NCBI GenBank assembly: GCA_009773635.1
Contig: WSYC01000012.1
Location: forward strand, 114,030-178,029
Direction of reading: 5' to 3'
From: Beijerinckiaceae bacterium
GTDB lineage: Bacteria; Pseudomonadota; Alphaproteobacteria; Rhizobiales; Beijerinckiaceae
Length of the DNA: 64,000 bases
The notes under the pieces are model-generated. The model was not told the DNA's origin. It was given only the letters and a program-made list of their open reading frames with translations, and made no database searches. Made by a program: the position numbers and the translations under genes. Shown here piece by piece: positions 6,850 through 56,259 of the stretch. Each line of letters starts with the position of its first letter. Positions within the stretch are counted from its first letter, which is position 1.

Positions 6850-7986
6850 ATGCGTATTGCTGTTCTTGATGAGACCAAAAATGGCGAGCCGCGCGTTGCG
6901 GCAACCCCGGAAACGATTCTCAAGCTCAAGCCCCTTGGCGCGGTTTTCGTGATCGAGAAGGGCGCGGGTACTGCGTCGAGCATTTCGGATGCCGCCTTCG
7001 AGGCCGCCGGTGCCACCATCGCCAAGAATGCCGCCGATGCGCTGAAGGACGCCGATGTCGTCCTCGCCGTGCGCCGCCCGAAGGGTGAGCTTGCGGCCAA
7101 AATGAAGAAGGGCGCGATCGTTCTTGCGATCATGGATCCCTACGGTAACGCCGAGGCGCTCCAGCCTTTCGCGGACAAGGGTGTTGCAACCTTCGCGATG
7201 GAACTGATGCCGCGCATCACCCGCGCGCAGGTGATGGACGTGCTTTCATCGCAGGCGAACCTCGCCGGCTATCGCGCCGTGATCGACGCGGCGGAAGTCT
7301 ATGGCCGGGCCTTCCCGATGATGATGACCGCCGCCGGCACTGTGCCTGCCGCCCGCGTTTTCGTGATGGGCGCCGGCGTCGCCGGTTTGCAGGCCATTGC
7401 GACCGCGCGTCGCCTCGGCGCGATCGTGACCGCAACGGACGTTCGTCCCGCTGCAAAAGAGCAGGTCGCCTCGCTCGGTGCGAAGTTCGTCGCCATCGAG
7501 GACGAGGAATTCAAGCAGGCCGAAACCGCCACGGGCTATGCCAAGCCGATGTCCGCCGAATATCAGGCAAAGCAGGCGGCGCTCGTCGCCGAACACATCG
7601 CCAAGCAGGATATCGTCATCACCACAGCGCTGATCCCCGGCCGTCCAGCGCCAAAGCTCGTCTCGAAGGCGATGGTGGAATCGATGCGTATGGGCTCGAT
7701 TGTCGTCGATCTCGCGGTTGAACGCGGCGGCAACTGCGAATTGTCGGTGGCGGATGTCATCACTGACCACAAGGGCGTGAAACTCATCGCCTGGTCGAAC
7801 ACGCCGGGCCGGCTCGCGCCAACGGCCTCCGCGCTCTACGCGAAAAATCTCTATGCCTTCCTCGAAACGATGATCGACAAGAAGGCCGGCACGCTGGCGG
7901 TCAACTGGGACGACGAACTCGTCAAAGCCACCTGCCTCACGAAGGACGGGGCGCTGGTTCACCCGATCTTCGCCCCGAAAGCCTAA
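6850..7986 (+). CDS. pntA: NAD(P) transhydrogenase subunit alpha, part 1 (domain I)
   Basis: E.RVAATPET, RITRAQ.MDVLSSQANLAGY, GAGVAGLQA, TTALIPGRPAP. Confidence 0.97.
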   Translation: MRIAVLDETKNGEPRVAATPETILKLKPLGAVFVIEKGAGTASSISDAAFEAAGATIAKNAADALKDADVVLAVRRPKGELAAKMKKGAIVLAIMDPYGNAEALQPFADKGVATFAMELMPRITRAQVMDVLSSQANLAGYRAVIDAAEVYGRAFPMMMTAAGTVPAARVFVMGAGVAGLQAIATARRLGAIVTATDVRPAAKEQVASLGAKFVAIEDEEFKQAETATGYAKPMSAEYQAKQAALVAEHIAKQDIVITTALIPGRPAPKLVSKAMVESMRMGSIVVDLAVERGGNCELSVADVITDHKGVKLIAWSNTPGRLAPTASALYAKNLYAFLETMIDKKAGTLAVNWDDELVKATCLTKDGALVHPIFAPKA

Positions 7987-30459: not shown

Positions 30460-31029
30460 TTATTTGCGGCCAAAAGCCGCCGCCAGCTGGCCGATCTGGC
30501 TCGCAACCGGGTTGGCTGTCTCCTTGGGAGCCTGACCCTTGAGCTCCTGATCGATGCGCTGGATGCGCACCTGAAGGCTCTTCGAGCGGTCGATGAGATC
30601 GCGGAGCGTTTCCGGCAACTGCTCGAACACATCCCCGGCGATCGAGGATTCCTGCATCGCGATGACAACGCGGCGGTGTTCGCGCTCCGCATCGTCACGC
30701 GTGAGCTCGCCCTCGTTCACGGCACGCTGGAGCAGGAGCCAGGACGTCAGCTGCATCAGCCGTGTCGTCAGGCGCATGCTTTCGCTGGCGTAGGCCAAGG
30801 CGATGTTGCGGTCGAGGTTCTTTGATTCGACACGCCCTTCCCCATCAAGATAGCCGGCGGTGGCCTCAACGAGGCCCATGCCCTCGCGGAACAGTGTCAT
30901 GAAGCCTTCTGACGCAAGCATGCGTTCCGTGAAGGATACGGCGCCAGCGCGCAGCCCGGCTTCCTGGGTTCCAATTCCTGCCATCACTGTATCGCGTGTT
31001 TGATCCTGCATGGTGGTCTCCGTCATCAA
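30460..31029 (-). CDS. rcdA: Regulator of CtrA degradation (DUF1465)
   Basis: LFREGMGLVE.TA.YLDG.GR...YA.ESMRLTTRLMQL.SWLLLQRA. Confidence 0.92.
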   Translation of the reverse strand: MMTETTMQDQTRDTVMAGIGTQEAGLRAGAVSFTERMLASEGFMTLFREGMGLVEATAGYLDGEGRVESKNLDRNIALAYASESMRLTTRLMQLTSWLLLQRAVNEGELTRDDAEREHRRVVIAMQESSIAGDVFEQLPETLRDLIDRSKSLQVRIQRIDQELKGQAPKETANPVASQIGQLAAAFGRK

Positions 31030-31158
31030 AATGTGCCGCGCCGGAACAGGAGCGAGCTGATGAGGAACCTTTCTGCAAGACTAACACCATCAGGCGATGG
31101 CGAAATGAAGACAGTATAGGAATGGTTAACGCCGAGGCGCGCGCCTGCCGCAATTGCC

Positions 31159-31259
31159 AAAAAAAAGGATCGCCGGAGCGATCCTGAATAAAGTCCAACA
31201 GGGAGGCGTCAAACAGAGCAGCAGGAGCCACTCGGGATCCGGCGAACCGGAACGCCCAT
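31159..31259 (-). ncRNA. Candidate trans-acting sRNA with anti-SD loop and intrinsic terminator
   Basis: Three hairpins on the minus strand: UCCGG-uucg-CCGGA; GUUUGAC-GCCUCCCU-GUUGGAC; GGAUCGC-uccg-GCGAUCC followed by U8. No credible ORF. Confidence 0.65.
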
Positions 31260-31277
31260 CGTTTTAAACCAAAGGCC

Positions 31278-31292
31278 TTAACGAGACGTTAA
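31278..31292. promoter_or_regulatory. Perfect CtrA box
   Basis: TTAA-cgagacg-TTAA, about 20 nt upstream of the candidate sRNA. Confidence 0.8.
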
Positions 31293-31374
31293 GTTCGTAC
31301 AATTTTCATCAAATGCATGGTATTTTCGCCCATGTTGCTGATTTGCTCGCGAAATCCGCACATGCCCCCGAAAT

Positions 31375-31563
31375 CTACCGCTTGAACAGGGCATCCGCGG
31401 CGGCCTGCGTCGAGAGCTTCCGGGCTCGCGCCTCGGCCAGCCGGGCGATCTCGGCGTGAAGCTGTTCGATCCGCTCGTCGATCTCGGCGATGGCGAGCGG
31501 CGAGAGGTCCTGACCGATCTCGTGGGTCGATTTTTTCCTCGGTTCTGCGTCCTCGTTGAACAT
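31375..31563 (-). CDS. DUF1192 family small protein
   Basis: HEIGQDLS.L.+.E+.ERI..L..EI.RL......K.....AAD.LFK. Confidence 0.88.
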   Translation of the reverse strand: MFNEDAEPRKKSTHEIGQDLSPLAIAEIDERIEQLHAEIARLAEARARKLSTQAAADALFKR

Positions 31564-31779
31564 TCGGGCTCTCCGCGAAGCTGATGTGCATGCCAATCTT
31601 GCGTGCATCAAATCCGGACAGTATAAGGGCGCATTCCCAAATTGGCATCGAGTGTTTCTCGTTGCGGGCCGCCCGGGGAAGGCGGCGCGAACGGGAAGGC
31701 GTATCTGGATGTTGCCCCCGGGCAGGGTGGCAGCAGTAAACTGACAACACGAAGACAAGACATTCAGGAGAACGGATCG

Positions 31780-32454
31780 ATGGCAACGCTTCTTATGGCG
31801 AAAGCGACGGCGGTATGGCTCGTTGAAAACACCGCCCTCACCTTCGATCAGATCGCCGTGTTCTGCACGCTGCATCCGCTCGAAGTGAAGGGCATCGCCG
31901 ATGGCGACGTCGCCGCCGGCATGAAGGGGCTCGACCCCGTGCAGGCCGGTCAGCTCAGCCGCGAGGAACTTGAGCGCGCGGAAGCCGACCCGAACTATCG
32001 CCTCAAGCTCCTTGAGCCGAAGGTCCGCCTGCCGGATCTCAAGCGCACCAAGGGCCCGCGCTATACGCCGGTCTCGAAGCGTCAGGATCGCCCGAATGCG
32101 ATCCAGTGGCTGCTCAAGAACCACCCCGAGCTGAAGGATGCGCAGATCATCCGCCTCGTCGGCACCACGAAATCGACGATCCAGTCGGTCAAGGAACGCA
32201 CCCACTGGAACGCCGGCAACCTCGCGCCGCTCGATCCGGTAACCCTCGGCCTGTGCTCGCAGATCGATCTCGATCTTGAAGTCGGTCGCGCCTCGAAGGA
32301 TCGCCCGGCCAATGTGGTGCCGGATGTCGGGGCGACGCTGATCCCGGCGGAAATGACGACGGCGGCGGAAGCCCCGAAGAAGAAGGTCGAGCTCGACGCC
32401 GAGCACGTCTTCGCCAAGCTGAAAGATCTCAAGCCGCTCGACGACGACGAGTAA
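31780..32454 (+). CDS. trcR: DUF1013 protein (TrcR-like, RNA-polymerase-associated cell-cycle factor)
   Basis: LM.KATAVWLVENT.LTFDQIA.FC.LH.LEVKGIADG; YTPVSKRQDRP.AI.WL. Confidence 0.9.
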   Translation: MATLLMAKATAVWLVENTALTFDQIAVFCTLHPLEVKGIADGDVAAGMKGLDPVQAGQLSREELERAEADPNYRLKLLEPKVRLPDLKRTKGPRYTPVSKRQDRPNAIQWLLKNHPELKDAQIIRLVGTTKSTIQSVKERTHWNAGNLAPLDPVTLGLCSQIDLDLEVGRASKDRPANVVPDVGATLIPAEMTTAAEAPKKKVELDAEHVFAKLKDLKPLDDDE

Positions 32455-32520: not shown

Positions 32521-32590
32521 GCTCACCAAATACACCAAAAAGTAGTGTTTTTATCAAATACTCTTTTTGGTTGTATATGGAGTCGTATCC

Positions 32591-33142
32591 GTGCCTTATC
32601 TGATTGATACCTGCGTGCTCAGGGAGTTGCACCTACCCCGCCCGTTCTGGCGCGTTCGCCGGGCGGTTGACGATCTCTGGATTGAAGATGTCCACATGAG
32701 CGTCGTGACCTTCGCGATCATGGAGGGCGGCGCGATCCAGTTGCCGCAGGAATTCAAGCAGCGCCGCGTGCGCGGCTGGATGCAGGACATGCGCCGTAAA
32801 CTCGGCAAGAACCTGCATGGTATCGATTACGAAACCAGCATCATCTGGGGGCAGATCATGTCATCCGCCAATCGACGGCGGCTGCGCTTGCCCTATCACG
32901 ACAGTTTGCTCGCCGCGACAGCGAAACGCCACGAGCTTACGGTGATGACGCGGAATGTCGGCTACTACGCGCCGTTCAGTATCGAGGTTCTCAACCCCTG
33001 GGGCGATCCGAAGGACAGCGATTACGACTACGGTGAGAAGCCGGAGAATGATGCGATCGAGCCGGGCACGACGAGCGCGGAGTTCCTCATTCCGGGCGGT
33101 GACGCAGGCACCCTGGAGGAAGAGACGGCAGCGGCCGCCTGA
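32591..33142 (+). CDS. PIN-domain (VapC-like) protein with acidic C-terminal tail and no adjacent antitoxin
   Basis: YLIDTCVLRE, VSVVT..+ME.G, HDSLLAATAKRHELTVMTRN; GTG start at 32591 after GGAG. Confidence 0.85.
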   Translation: MPYLIDTCVLRELHLPRPFWRVRRAVDDLWIEDVHMSVVTFAIMEGGAIQLPQEFKQRRVRGWMQDMRRKLGKNLHGIDYETSIIWGQIMSSANRRRLRLPYHDSLLAATAKRHELTVMTRNVGYYAPFSIEVLNPWGDPKDSDYDYGEKPENDAIEPGTTSAEFLIPGGDAGTLEEETAAAA

Positions 33143-36129: not shown

Positions 36130-36287
36130 TGCGGGGCTGCGGAATGCGGCAGGTTATACGTATTCCCCGGGGCCTTAACAATCCCTAGGGAGCTGTACCT
36201 ATCCGGACCCGTGGGTCCGGGTACACGGCGCCCACCTACTTATGTAGGTTCCCGGGATCGACACTCCACCGGTTCTGTGGCTCCGCA
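36130..36287 (+). ncRNA. ssrS: 6S RNA
   Basis: Downstream of zapA. Terminal pairing gcggggctgcgg/ctgtggctccgc. Central alphaproteobacterial 6S motifs ccccggggcc...agggagctg...ggcgcccacctacttatgtagg..cccggg; about 158 nt. Confidence 0.9.
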
Positions 36288-53979: not shown

Positions 53980-53995
53980 TTAAGCGCCCCTTAAC
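53980..53995 (+). promoter_or_regulatory. Perfect CtrA box upstream of the outer-membrane protein gene
   Basis: TTAA-gcgcccc-TTAAC, with an extra TTAA at 53974. Confidence 0.8.
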
Positions 53996-54071
53996 CAAGT
54001 TCTGGCATGGTTCCTAATGTTCGATTCCAGCGGCATGAAAAGGCCGCTCGATATGCATGAAGGGATATCAC

Positions 54072-54899
54072 ATGCGCAGCCTCCAGACGCTTCGTGCGGC
54101 GGGTATTGCAGCACTTCTGGCGACCGCCTCGACCGGCATCGCCTCGGCTGCAGACATGCTTGCACCGCCCCCGCCGCCGCCGATGATGCAGGCCCCGCCG
54201 CCGCTGGATGTGGGCGGAGGCTTCTATCTTCGCGGCGATGTCGGCACGGGCCTCTACAGCAACTCCAGCATCCGCACCGTTCCGGCCGTTGCCGGCCTGC
54301 GCACGATCGACAGCTCGATCGACGGCACGCATTTCATCGGGATCGGCGCTGGCTACCAATACAATTCCTACCTGCGCACGGACTTCACAGCCGAGTATCG
54401 CCTCGATGCCAAGCACCGGCACACCGACGTTTTCACCGGCCCGCCGGTTAACTCCAACCTGATCACCGGCAAGGTCGGCGGCTTCGTGGCGCTGGCCAAC
54501 GCCTATGTCGATCTCGGCACCTGGCATCGCATCACGCCGTTTGTCGGCGTCGGCGCCGGTTTTGCCACGATGACGATGGGCAAGACGACCGATTACAATC
54601 TCACCGCCGGCGGCGCTGTCGGCGGCACGGGGCCGTCGAAAACCCAGACCCGCTTCGCCTGGGCCCTCCACGCCGGTGTCGGCTACGATCTCACGCAGAA
54701 CTGGAAGGCCGAAGCTGCCTACCGCTACCTGCGCATCGGCGACGTCAACGGCGGTCAGGTCACCTGCGCCGGCGCCTGTCCCTACAACGTCCGGATCAAC
54801 AGCCTCGCCAGCCACGACATCAAGGTCGGCCTGCGCTATGCCTTCGCCGACATGGCCGCGCCGATGTATGCGCCCGGCCCGCTGGTGCGGAAGTACTGA
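54072..54899 (+). CDS. Outer-membrane beta-barrel protein (Omp25/RopB-like)
   Basis: Signal ending ASAADM, Pro-rich linker, GFYLRGDVG, G.G.GYQ+N..LR.D.T.EY, NAYVDLGTW..ITP+VG.G.G. Confidence 0.9.
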   Translation: MRSLQTLRAAGIAALLATASTGIASAADMLAPPPPPPMMQAPPPLDVGGGFYLRGDVGTGLYSNSSIRTVPAVAGLRTIDSSIDGTHFIGIGAGYQYNSYLRTDFTAEYRLDAKHRHTDVFTGPPVNSNLITGKVGGFVALANAYVDLGTWHRITPFVGVGAGFATMTMGKTTDYNLTAGGAVGGTGPSKTQTRFAWALHAGVGYDLTQNWKAEAAYRYLRIGDVNGGQVTCAGACPYNVRINSLASHDIKVGLRYAFADMAAPMYAPGPLVRKY

Positions 54900-54958: not shown

Positions 54959-55043
54959 GTTGTCGGGTGAACAGAAGAAATTTCGTCTTCCTCACCGCGG
55001 GCGATTGCTTTTTCTCCGCAACAGGCGTAGCTCCATCGGCGGG

Positions 55044-55092
55044 ACATCTCCCCCCAACGGGAGGCGCCCATCTGTAAGGATGGAGATCACAG
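55044..55092 (+). promoter_or_regulatory. serC leader RNA motif (putative cis-regulatory element)
   Basis: CUCCC-ccaac-GGGAG, GCGC linker, CCAUC-uguaag-GAUGG overlapping the RBS. This matches the recalled two-hairpin alphaproteobacterial serC element. Confidence 0.65.
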
Positions 55093-56259
55093 ATGACGAT
55101 GACGGCCCCCGCCGCGCTCCCGCGCGTTGCAACTTTCTCTTCCGGTCCTTGCGCCAAACGGCCGGGCTGGTCCCTTAAAGCCCTCGCTGATGCCCCGCTT
55201 GGCCGCTCGCACCGCGCGAAGATCGGCAAGGCGAAGCTCAAGCTCGCAATCGACCTCACCCGCGAAATCCTGCAAGTGCCGGCGGATTACCGCATCGGCA
55301 TCGTCCCGGCGTCCGATACCGGCGCAGTCGAGATGGCGATGTGGTCGCTGCTCGGCGCCCGCCCGGTGACCATGGTCGCTTGGGAAAGCTTCGGCGAAGG
55401 CTGGATCACGGACGTCACCAAGCAGCTCAAGCTCGCCGATGTCGAGACCGTCAAGGCGCCCTACGGCGAATTACCGAACCTGAAGAAAATCGACACGAAG
55501 AACCGCGATGTCGTCTTCACCTGGAACGGCACGACCTCGGGCGTACGCGTGCCGGACGCCGACTGGATCGCCGGGGATCGCGAAGGTCTCACGATCTGCG
55601 ACGCCACCTCCGCTGCTTTCGCGCAGCGCCTCGATTGGGCGAAGCTCGATGTCACCACCTTCTCCTGGCAGAAGGTGCTCGGCGGCGAGGCTGCGCATGG
55701 CATGCTCATTCTCTCCCCGCGCGCTGTGCAGCGGCTTGAGACCTACAAGCCGGCCTGGCCGCTGCCGAAGATCTTCCGCCTGACCTCCGGCGGCAAACTG
55801 ATCGAGGGCATTTTCCAGGGTGAGACGATCAACACACCGTCCATGCTCTGCGTCGAGGATTACATCGATGCGCTGATGTGGGCGAAAAAGGTCGGCGGGC
55901 TCGATGGCCTCGTCAAGCGCGCGGATGCCAACACCCGCGCCATCGCCAGCTTCGTGAAGAACACGCCGTGGATCGATTTCCTCGCCGTCAAACCCAAGAC
56001 GCGCTCGAACACCTCGGTCTGCCTCAAGTTCACCGACCCCAAGGTCGTGGCGCTGCCGGCGGACAAGCAGGCGGAGTTCGCCAAGGGCGTCGTCGCGACG
56101 CTGGAGAAGGCGGGCGCCGGCCTCGATCTCGGCCATTACCGCGATGCCCCTCCGGGCCTCAGGATCTGGTGCGGCGCGACCGTACAGACCCGCGACGTGA
56201 AAGCGCTGATCCCGTGGATCGAATACGCGTTTGCCAAGCAGCTCGCGACACTCAGCTGA
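55093..56259 (+). CDS. serC: Phosphoserine aminotransferase
   Basis: [51 protein letters not shown]. Confidence 0.97.

Follow-up and report, generated by a model that had tools for sequence, protein, structure and literature searches.

BjrC1505 (Rfam RF02356) is an alphaproteobacterial small RNA (sRNA) that was first reported in Bradyrhizobium japonicum, and a relative of it has been detected on a Northern blot in Methylorubrum extorquens; no report linking BjrC1505 to CtrA and rcdA was found in the literature searched. Here we report that a stretch of 64,000 nucleotides from a Beijerinckiaceae bacterium (contig WSYC01000012.1, positions 114,030 to 178,029; this whole stretch is referred to as the window) carries a BjrC1505 copy between a DUF1192 gene and rcdA, which encodes the adaptor for CtrA proteolysis, and that a perfect CtrA-type box precedes the copy. 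Our data suggest that the sRNA probably represents an unrecognised RNA output of the cell-cycle circuit.

Among the described RNAs of that circuit, the CtrA-activated non-coding RNA CcnA (CCNA_R0094) of Caulobacter crescentus has a CCCC loop that pairs with GGGG beside the ctrA and gcrA ribosome-binding sites, and according to its authors there is no clear homologue in Sinorhizobium meliloti (PMC8959179). The predicted RNA of the window resembles CcnA in its putative CtrA-box promoter, proposed late cell-cycle logic and C-rich loop, whereas it differs in size (95 nt vs 182 nt), genomic location (next to rcdA vs inside the replication origin) and position of the box, which for CcnA is at -23. 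Hence, with context, size and structure all different, and with the two RNAs compared by description only, the likeness is one of functional analogy and not of family membership.

The S. meliloti sRNAs EcpR1 (SmelC291) and GspR (SmelC775) are comparable as trans-acting Rhizobiales sRNAs that touch cell-cycle mRNAs, the targets being dnaA and gcrA for EcpR1, which is conserved more widely in the Rhizobiales, and ctrA for GspR. The GspR locus, however, is situated between SMc03844 and SMc03845, far from rcdA (SMc03989), and is restricted to Sinorhizobium, so GspR was rejected as an identity for the window RNA; moreover, it is induced by stress or stationary phase and no CtrA box has been reported for it. 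The EcpR1 locus presumably also lies elsewhere than that of the window sRNA, the two having been compared neither by sequence nor by location. Finally, SorX (RF02784) and SorY (RF02651) of Rhodobacter sphaeroides have in common with the window RNA a CCUCCCUGUUGGAC string that is followed by a terminator, but their 5' parts are unrelated to it and they belong to an oxidative-stress regulon. Membership in the same family was rejected on the Rfam scores of the window RNA, which are far below threshold both for SorX (19.6 vs 46.6 bits) and for SorY (18.2 vs 111 bits).

Identification of a BjrC1505 copy upstream of rcdA

The gap between the DUF1192 gene and rcdA is 363 nt long and holds, in this order on the minus strand, the box, a -10-like hexamer, a structured RNA and a terminator. 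In a search of the window against Rfam using cmscan, positions 31160-31299 (minus strand) matched BjrC1505 with 62.5 bits (E 2.5e-9; model positions 1-140 of 140), where the curated gathering score of RF02356 is 50 bits, and BjrC1505 was the sole family above threshold at the sRNA locus. The locus is a copy of a catalogued alphaproteobacterial sRNA, a divergent member of its family and not a new RNA. A preliminary description of the same DNA had presented the RNA as a candidate of its own, and because of this above-threshold match to a known family its novelty is lost, as that description itself had foreseen. It had also suggested that the RNA might belong to a known family; this turned out to be correct, but the family is BjrC1505 and not one of those it had in mind, i.e. 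suhB and the alpha-r families, both rejected here since Rfam gave no match to either, or a S. meliloti cell-cycle sRNA such as GspR. A reading of "1505" in the family name as a coordinate was likewise rejected, bll1388 (coordinate 1,505,824) being absent from all listed family loci.

The RNA of the window is predicted to be approximately 95 nt long (31159-31253, minus strand). It folds with a minimum free energy (MFE) of -36.4 kcal/mol (z = -4.6), and 0 of 200 shuffled sequences fold as well. Four hairpins were identified. Stem-loop 1 (SL1; 31238-31251), UCCGG-UUCG-CCGGA, is located at the 5' end of the RNA, and the stem varies among relatives as CCAG/CUGG, CCGG/CCGG, CCAC/GUGG, CCAU/AUGG and CCAA/UUGG. 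SL2 (31216-31233), GAGUGGC-UCCU-GCUGCUC, is seen in the fold as well as in the family consensus. Conservation among family members is at least 90% in SL2, higher than anywhere else in the RNA apart from the region that served as search pattern; the SL2 loop reads UCCU in the window copy vs CUCCUGU in the consensus and is the first C/U-rich motif. The second is the CCUCCC loop (31206-31201) of SL3 (31193-31214), which sits on a weak 8-bp stem rich in G-U pairs. SL4 (31159-31185) was recovered in a terminator scan as an intrinsic terminator with an 8-bp stem, AGGAUCGC-UCCG-GCGAUCCU (31185-31166), and a U8 run (31166-31159), and its relatives show compensatory changes. In the consensus of 41 non-redundant family sequences (RNAalifold) the four helices are retained, with compensatory changes in 8 of 20 pairs. 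These are also the elements of the 3' domain of RF02356 (a hairpin, the GAGUGG..CCACUC hairpin, the CCUCCC hairpin and the terminator), all four of which are present in the MFE fold and in the 41-sequence consensus.

All features listed in the preliminary description, i.e. the box, the UUCG hairpin, the CCUCCC stem, the terminator with U8 and rcdA, were recovered in place, while its inventory of hairpins was complete except for SL2. It had further proposed that the RNA presents anti-Shine-Dalgarno loops, and this agrees with the C/U-rich loops of SL3 (CCUCCC, an anti-Shine-Dalgarno motif) and SL2 (UCCU/CUCCUG). The RNA thus has the exposed C/U-rich seed, Rho-independent terminator and U8 tail that characterise anti-Shine-Dalgarno sRNAs.

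The window copy has SL1-SL4, the invariant CUCUGUUUGACGCCUCCCUGUU core and the terminator in common with the BjrC1505 family and its flanking genes in common with the Bradyrhizobium diazoefficiens copy, but it scores 62.5 bits vs 129 bits for Bradyrhizobium. Relative to the family, the window copy has a SL2 with a 1-nt deletion and compensating changes, and UUCG as SL1 loop.

Conservation of the locus in other genomes

Scanning reference genomes with the RNA core gave at least 120 loci, and the family counts reported here rest on the matches listed. The listed loci represent Bradyrhizobium, Tardiphaga, Afipia, Nitrobacter, Pseudolabrys, Bosea, Microvirga, Chelatococcus, Ancylobacter, Devosia, Bauldia, Hyphomicrobium, Methyloceanibacter, Stappia/Roseibium, Breoghania, Parvibaculum and Thermopetrobacter as well as many uncultured Hyphomicrobiales, and 13 diverse loci among them were all assigned to RF02356 (55-129 bits). 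Of the 120 listed loci, 111 have a co-directional rcdA immediately downstream, no more than a few hundred bases away, and 95 have a co-directional DUF1192 gene immediately upstream; for some of the exceptions a nearby locus end is possibly the cause. This widespread sRNA of unstudied function thus occupies a constant position, flanked by DUF1192 and rcdA. The value of our analysis lies mainly in this comparison, the window itself adding only a divergent copy. The analysis supports the discrete, terminator-ended sRNA gene directly upstream of rcdA that had been put forward in the preliminary description.

In the B. diazoefficiens locus (L027) a probable dispersed repeat element of 32 nt (7284-7315) separates DUF1192 from the sRNA; its depth is very high (~450) in a Bradyrhizobium-like RNA-seq run, in which many contigs terminate at this element.

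A CtrA-type box at a fixed distance from the RNA

The box, TTAACGTCTCGTTAA (31278-31292, minus strand), is a perfect TTAA-N7-TTAA and is followed by the -10-like hexamer TAAAAC (31261-31266, minus strand; family consensus TAT.AC), a putative promoter element. The TTAA-N7-TTAA pattern occurs twice in the 64-kb window where 0.03 matches were expected from shuffles. To assess its conservation we used the RNA core as anchor, searched 65-85 nt upstream of it and took random stretches of the same loci as controls. A box with at most one mismatch was present at the same offset in 114 of 116 listed loci (51 of these boxes being perfect), compared to ~0% of the control stretches; genomes with the box include those of Bradyrhizobium, Devosia, Stappia, Bosea, Methyloceanibacter and Parvibaculum. 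The family consensus reads TTAAC-N5-GTTAAGCTTTC, then TTAT.ACT (25-32 nt when counted from the start of the box in the box-anchored consensus), and then the first stem.

As the half-sites could in principle form a TTAAC/GTTAA stem, we also considered the box as an RNA hairpin. Among 89 distinct boxes the half-sites are essentially invariant and the five central bases take 74 forms; in the would-be stem the third pair is T-T in 29 of the 89, the fifth pair is complementary in only 39, and no compensatory change was found. The RNA hairpin was rejected on these grounds (invariant half-sites, uncompensated T-T clashes and 74 distinct spacers), the variation being the signature of a DNA site bound by a protein and not of an RNA helix. 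Therefore, the first ~45 positions of the Rfam model, which starts 7 nt before the box, probably describe promoter DNA and not RNA (window positions 31255-31299). In this 5' domain (positions 1-45) cmscan marks 8 non-canonical pairs in the window copy, a mismatch that we did not count against family membership because the stretch is read as promoter DNA.

Full CtrA motifs that act as activator sites in Caulobacter have their first base near -35, ctrA P2 with -39 being one example (PMC4287350), and by homology to the mapped start in Agrobacterium fabrum (see below) the first base of the window box would likewise be at about -39. The proposal that a CtrA-type box is present at promoter distance is supported by the 114 of 116 listed loci and by the distance of 39 nt to the A. 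fabrum transcription start site (TSS). Comparison and literature have also strengthened the proposed CtrA control, and on sequence grounds we regard the CtrA link of the BjrC1505 family as well supported but unproven.

The second perfect box in the window, TTAAGCGCCCCTTAAC (53980-53994, plus strand), is located ~65 nt upstream of an open reading frame (ORF; 54057-54899, plus strand) that encodes an outer-membrane beta-barrel protein (Pfam OMP_b-brl), and may represent a second CtrA-controlled promoter. Genes of this class are under CtrA control in Brucella.

Transcription start and transcripts of relatives

The position of the start, the occupancy by CtrA in vivo and the existence of a discrete RNA are taken from relatives described in the literature. 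Differential RNA sequencing (dRNA-seq) of A. fabrum C58 has revealed two starts for rcdA (Atu3742), a distal "secondary" TSS with a 263-nt untranslated region (UTR) and the upstream 51-mer TTCGTTTACCATTAACCAAAAATTAAGCTTTCTGAGAGATTACTATACATG, and a "primary" TSS 73 nt from the start codon and 190 nt downstream of the distal one (PMC10469942 supplement). We noted that the 51-mer carries a homologous box, TTAACCAAAAATTAAGCTTTC, the same GCTTTC and the same TTACT element. Taking its last base as the TSS, which we assume to be the format of TSSpredator tables, the distance from the first T of the box to the distal TSS is 39 nt. When this geometry is transferred to the window the start would be a G at 31253 (minus strand, within ~2 nt), directly before SL1, with the hexamer at -13 to -8 and the box at -39 to -25. 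For S. meliloti a CtrA motif, TAACCCTTTCTTAAG, has been predicted upstream of rcdA, with 5' ends 34, 43, 88 and 91 nt after the end of the motif (PMC3616915 supplement), which agrees in sense with the A. fabrum arrangement.

In RNA-seq data from a relative of Bradyrhizobium the final U of the terminator is precisely where one contig stops, and the next ~115 nt are uncovered, while a separate and much deeper rcdA contig from the same run starts ~45 nt before the start codon. The DNA of the window matches groundwater metagenomes, and in a sludge metatranscriptome the depth rises from ~15 to 55-190 exactly between 31157 and 31255, with several contigs ending at 31250/31253, in agreement with the transferred start. 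Two metatranscriptome contigs join the 5' edge of the sRNA (31253) to sequence that resembles the DUF1192 promoter region (31615/31616), and skip ~361 nt; these could derive from a relative that lacks DUF1192 or reflect a chance similarity of 30 nt.

Proposed function and alternative explanations

With moderate confidence we favour the interpretation that the RNA is a CtrA-activated, independently terminated and trans-acting sRNA of which the CUCCUG and CCUCCC loops pair with G-rich ribosome-binding regions, CcnA being the closest functional precedent. Phosphorylated CtrA would bind the TTAA-N7-TTAA box, which overlaps the -35 region with its first base near -39, and activate transcription from ~31253, resulting in a ~95-nt transcript that ends at the intrinsic terminator with its U8 run (31166-31159), while rcdA would be transcribed mainly from its own proximal promoter. 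As in other anti-Shine-Dalgarno sRNAs of alphaproteobacteria, the exposed CUCCUG (SL2) and CCUCCC (SL3) would then most likely pair in trans with G-rich ribosome-binding regions of target mRNAs, probably together with Hfq, and change translation, so that CtrA would also act at the post-transcriptional level, late in the cell cycle. Here the membership in BjrC1505, the structure, the synteny and the box at a fixed distance were observed directly, whereas CtrA activation in the organism of the window, the trans-acting anti-Shine-Dalgarno action and any targets are what we infer. The data give a testable hypothesis for the regulation of the BjrC1505 family.

Several points weigh against this interpretation. 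The sole published functional statement that we found for BjrC1505 names acetolactate synthase as a predicted target, and this is not a cell-cycle gene. For the organism of the window the evidence of expression consists of assembled metatranscriptome contigs only, and we downgraded the depth step as proof of transcript ends, treating it as weak support, because the RNA core is conserved across species but its flanks are not, which gives the same picture. That the A. fabrum and S. meliloti transcripts upstream of rcdA belong to BjrC1505 is suggested by similarity of the promoters only. Also, the S. meliloti 5' ends (34 and 43 nt) are ~10 nt further away than predicted from the Agrobacterium geometry and would instead put the first base of the box at ~ -49, the base after the second half-site is G and not the canonical C, and 63 of the 114 listed boxes have one mismatch. 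These last observations could also mean that the sRNA gene is independent but that its box is used by another factor, or is merely an AT-rich promoter element, with no cell-cycle control by CtrA. Given that the site is an exact CtrA full site with the required 7-nt spacing at a position typical of activation, that a CtrA signal was detected at the region upstream of rcdA in S. meliloti by chromatin immunoprecipitation sequencing (ChIP-seq; PMC4433202), and that the sole other perfect box in the window is in the promoter region of an outer-membrane protein gene, we find this improbable. Finally, RNA contigs of Bradyrhizobium relatives run from upstream of the box across it to the U-run, so some transcripts start upstream, as does the Rfam model, and since these contigs cross the box into the sRNA it is likely that read-through from DUF1192 also feeds the sRNA terminator. 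Taken further, the region could simply be where the DUF1192 mRNA ends, as its 3' UTR and terminator, with a short RNA formed by processing and a box that is no promoter element; the 83 nt that separate the DUF1192 gene from the box contain no terminator. This we judge to be very improbable: dRNA-seq places a primary 5' end of A. fabrum right after the homologous box and -10 element, the box, the -10-like element and the start of SL1 keep a fixed spacing across families, the box is conserved in the manner of a DNA motif and not of an RNA helix, and in 25 of the 120 listed loci the sRNA and the box are present but no DUF1192 was detected upstream, although some of these are cut by the ends of the loci.

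The proximity to rcdA raises the alternative that the RNA chiefly is a cis-acting leader of rcdA, in which case the box would be the cell-cycle promoter of rcdA, the terminator a conditional attenuator controlling the amount of CtrA-driven transcription that gets to rcdA, and the short RNA a by-product or a molecule with a secondary role. The two models are compatible, and several data would fit a leader: in 111 of 120 listed loci the sRNA has rcdA as its neighbour in the same orientation, the stretch from the terminator to rcdA contains no further conserved CtrA site, published maps give rcdA a distal start (the "secondary" TSS of A. fabrum with its 263-nt UTR), the S. meliloti start is an mTSS and all four 5' ends in the CtrA-motif table are within 91 nt of the box (PMC3616915), and rcdA is a member of the CtrA regulon in Caulobacter (PMC4287350). 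On the other hand, the strong terminator is conserved and shows compensatory changes, the RNA offers no evident alternative pairing that could act as antiterminator, and the loops are kept in sequence, like trans-acting seeds, and not merely in structure. Moreover, A. fabrum has its separate primary rcdA TSS, the Bradyrhizobium-like contigs leave a gap between the U-run and rcdA with an rcdA depth far above that of the sRNA, and in S. meliloti rcdA expression is unchanged on CtrA depletion (PMC4433202). A leader function as the chief role of the RNA therefore appears unlikely.

An sRNA with its own terminator would also account for a puzzle in S. meliloti, where ChIP-seq has shown CtrA bound at the rcdA promoter region but where rcdA did not respond to CtrA depletion in microarray, quantitative PCR or lacZ fusion experiments, and the conclusion drawn in that study was that rcdA is not under conserved CtrA control (PMC4433202). 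Judging from promoter similarity, the CtrA site assigned to rcdA in S. meliloti may precede a BjrC1505 copy, and CtrA would then be bound with rcdA unresponsive because the box drives the terminated sRNA and rcdA has its own promoter. On this basis a new interpretation could be given to the CtrA sites of the "rcdA promoter" and to the distal rcdA TSSs that have been published for Sinorhizobium and Agrobacterium. In its most general form the idea would be that BjrC1505 is a CtrA-activated cell-cycle riboregulator of the Hyphomicrobiales and a functional counterpart of CcnA, the "rcdA" CtrA site of the Rhizobiales driving the sRNA. Its anti-Shine-Dalgarno loops would then tune, in predivisional cells, how cell-cycle or envelope genes are translated, and the CtrA circuit would gain an RNA arm that is physically coupled to the gene for the CtrA-proteolysis adaptor. 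This would make BjrC1505 a candidate for the missing CcnA-like RNA in Rhizobiales, but we put the generalisation forward tentatively and consider it doubtful.

As to the promoter of rcdA in the window, a half-site TTAACCAT (31129-31122) together with TATACT (31117-31112), i.e. 31112-31129 on the minus strand, might constitute a possible rcdA-proximal promoter. Both elements had been noted in the preliminary description and are present, but the half-site is not conserved: only 23 of 112 listed loci have a TTAACCA in the stretch that separates the terminator from rcdA, and most of these overlap the start codon in Bradyrhizobium. The pair is lineage-specific, being present in the window and in close relatives in one metatranscriptome, and TTAACCAT was rejected as a conserved rcdA promoter since it is not a feature of the family.

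Candidate targets

The ribosome-binding site of rcdA reads GAGGCGU, a perfect complement of ACGCCUC in SL3, in 36 of 112 listed loci compared to 8 of 424 control start regions. GAGGCGU is, however, absent from the rcdA ribosome-binding site of the window. Metagenomes were scanned for variants of the seed, which mostly gave unrelated chance matches and five family members only, and three metagenome relatives with a mutated seed G (ACACCUC, ACUCCUC) keep GAGGCG unchanged. Pairing of the sRNA with the rcdA ribosome-binding site is consequently not supported, the site being absent in the window and showing no covariation with the seed, and rcdA, one of the targets suggested for prediction in the preliminary description, is not supported as a target at this site. 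The enriched GAGGCGT is positioned at -15 to -7 from the rcdA ATG in e.g. loci L016, L036, L060, L067, L084, L093 and L105. A target scan of the window based on duplex energies gave long spurious duplexes and was uninformative, and ctrA is absent from the 64-kb window. No target that would support the RNA-level feedback arm in the CtrA circuit suggested in the preliminary description emerged from these searches.

Neighbouring genes and other features of the window

The gene boundaries at the locus agree with independent gene calls on the same DNA. rcdA (30460-31011, minus strand) starts 147 nt past the terminator and its product matches Pfam DUF1465 (E 4e-54) and the RcdA crystal structure PDB 3CTW (E 1e-35). 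The identity of the upstream gene as DUF1192 (31375-31563, minus strand) was confirmed with Pfam, and 83 nt separate the stop codon of this gene from the box. Beyond DUF1192, and divergent from it, is trcR (31777-32454, plus strand; Pfam "transcriptional cell cycle regulator TrcR"), a further family of cell-cycle regulators. In the window, cell-cycle genes are thus tightly grouped in the order trcR, DUF1192, sRNA, rcdA. Sequence loosely related to the trcR stretch was found upstream in 17 of 120 listed loci, but the probe was in the wrong frame and the number is no measure of trcR linkage. A gene for a PIN-domain protein (32567-33142, plus strand) adjoins trcR.

Further away, a serC leader (RF00517, 62 bits) was predicted at 55037-55088 on the plus strand; the ORF directly 3' of it (55093-56259, plus strand) matched no Pfam family at E 0.001 with the ORF as called, which is odd for serC. 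Finally, a 6S RNA gene (Rfam RF00013, 88 bits) is present at 36131-36287 on the plus strand, ~5 kb from the sRNA, and 6S RNA is also located a few kb from the BjrC1505 copy in two of the family loci (L042 and L065).

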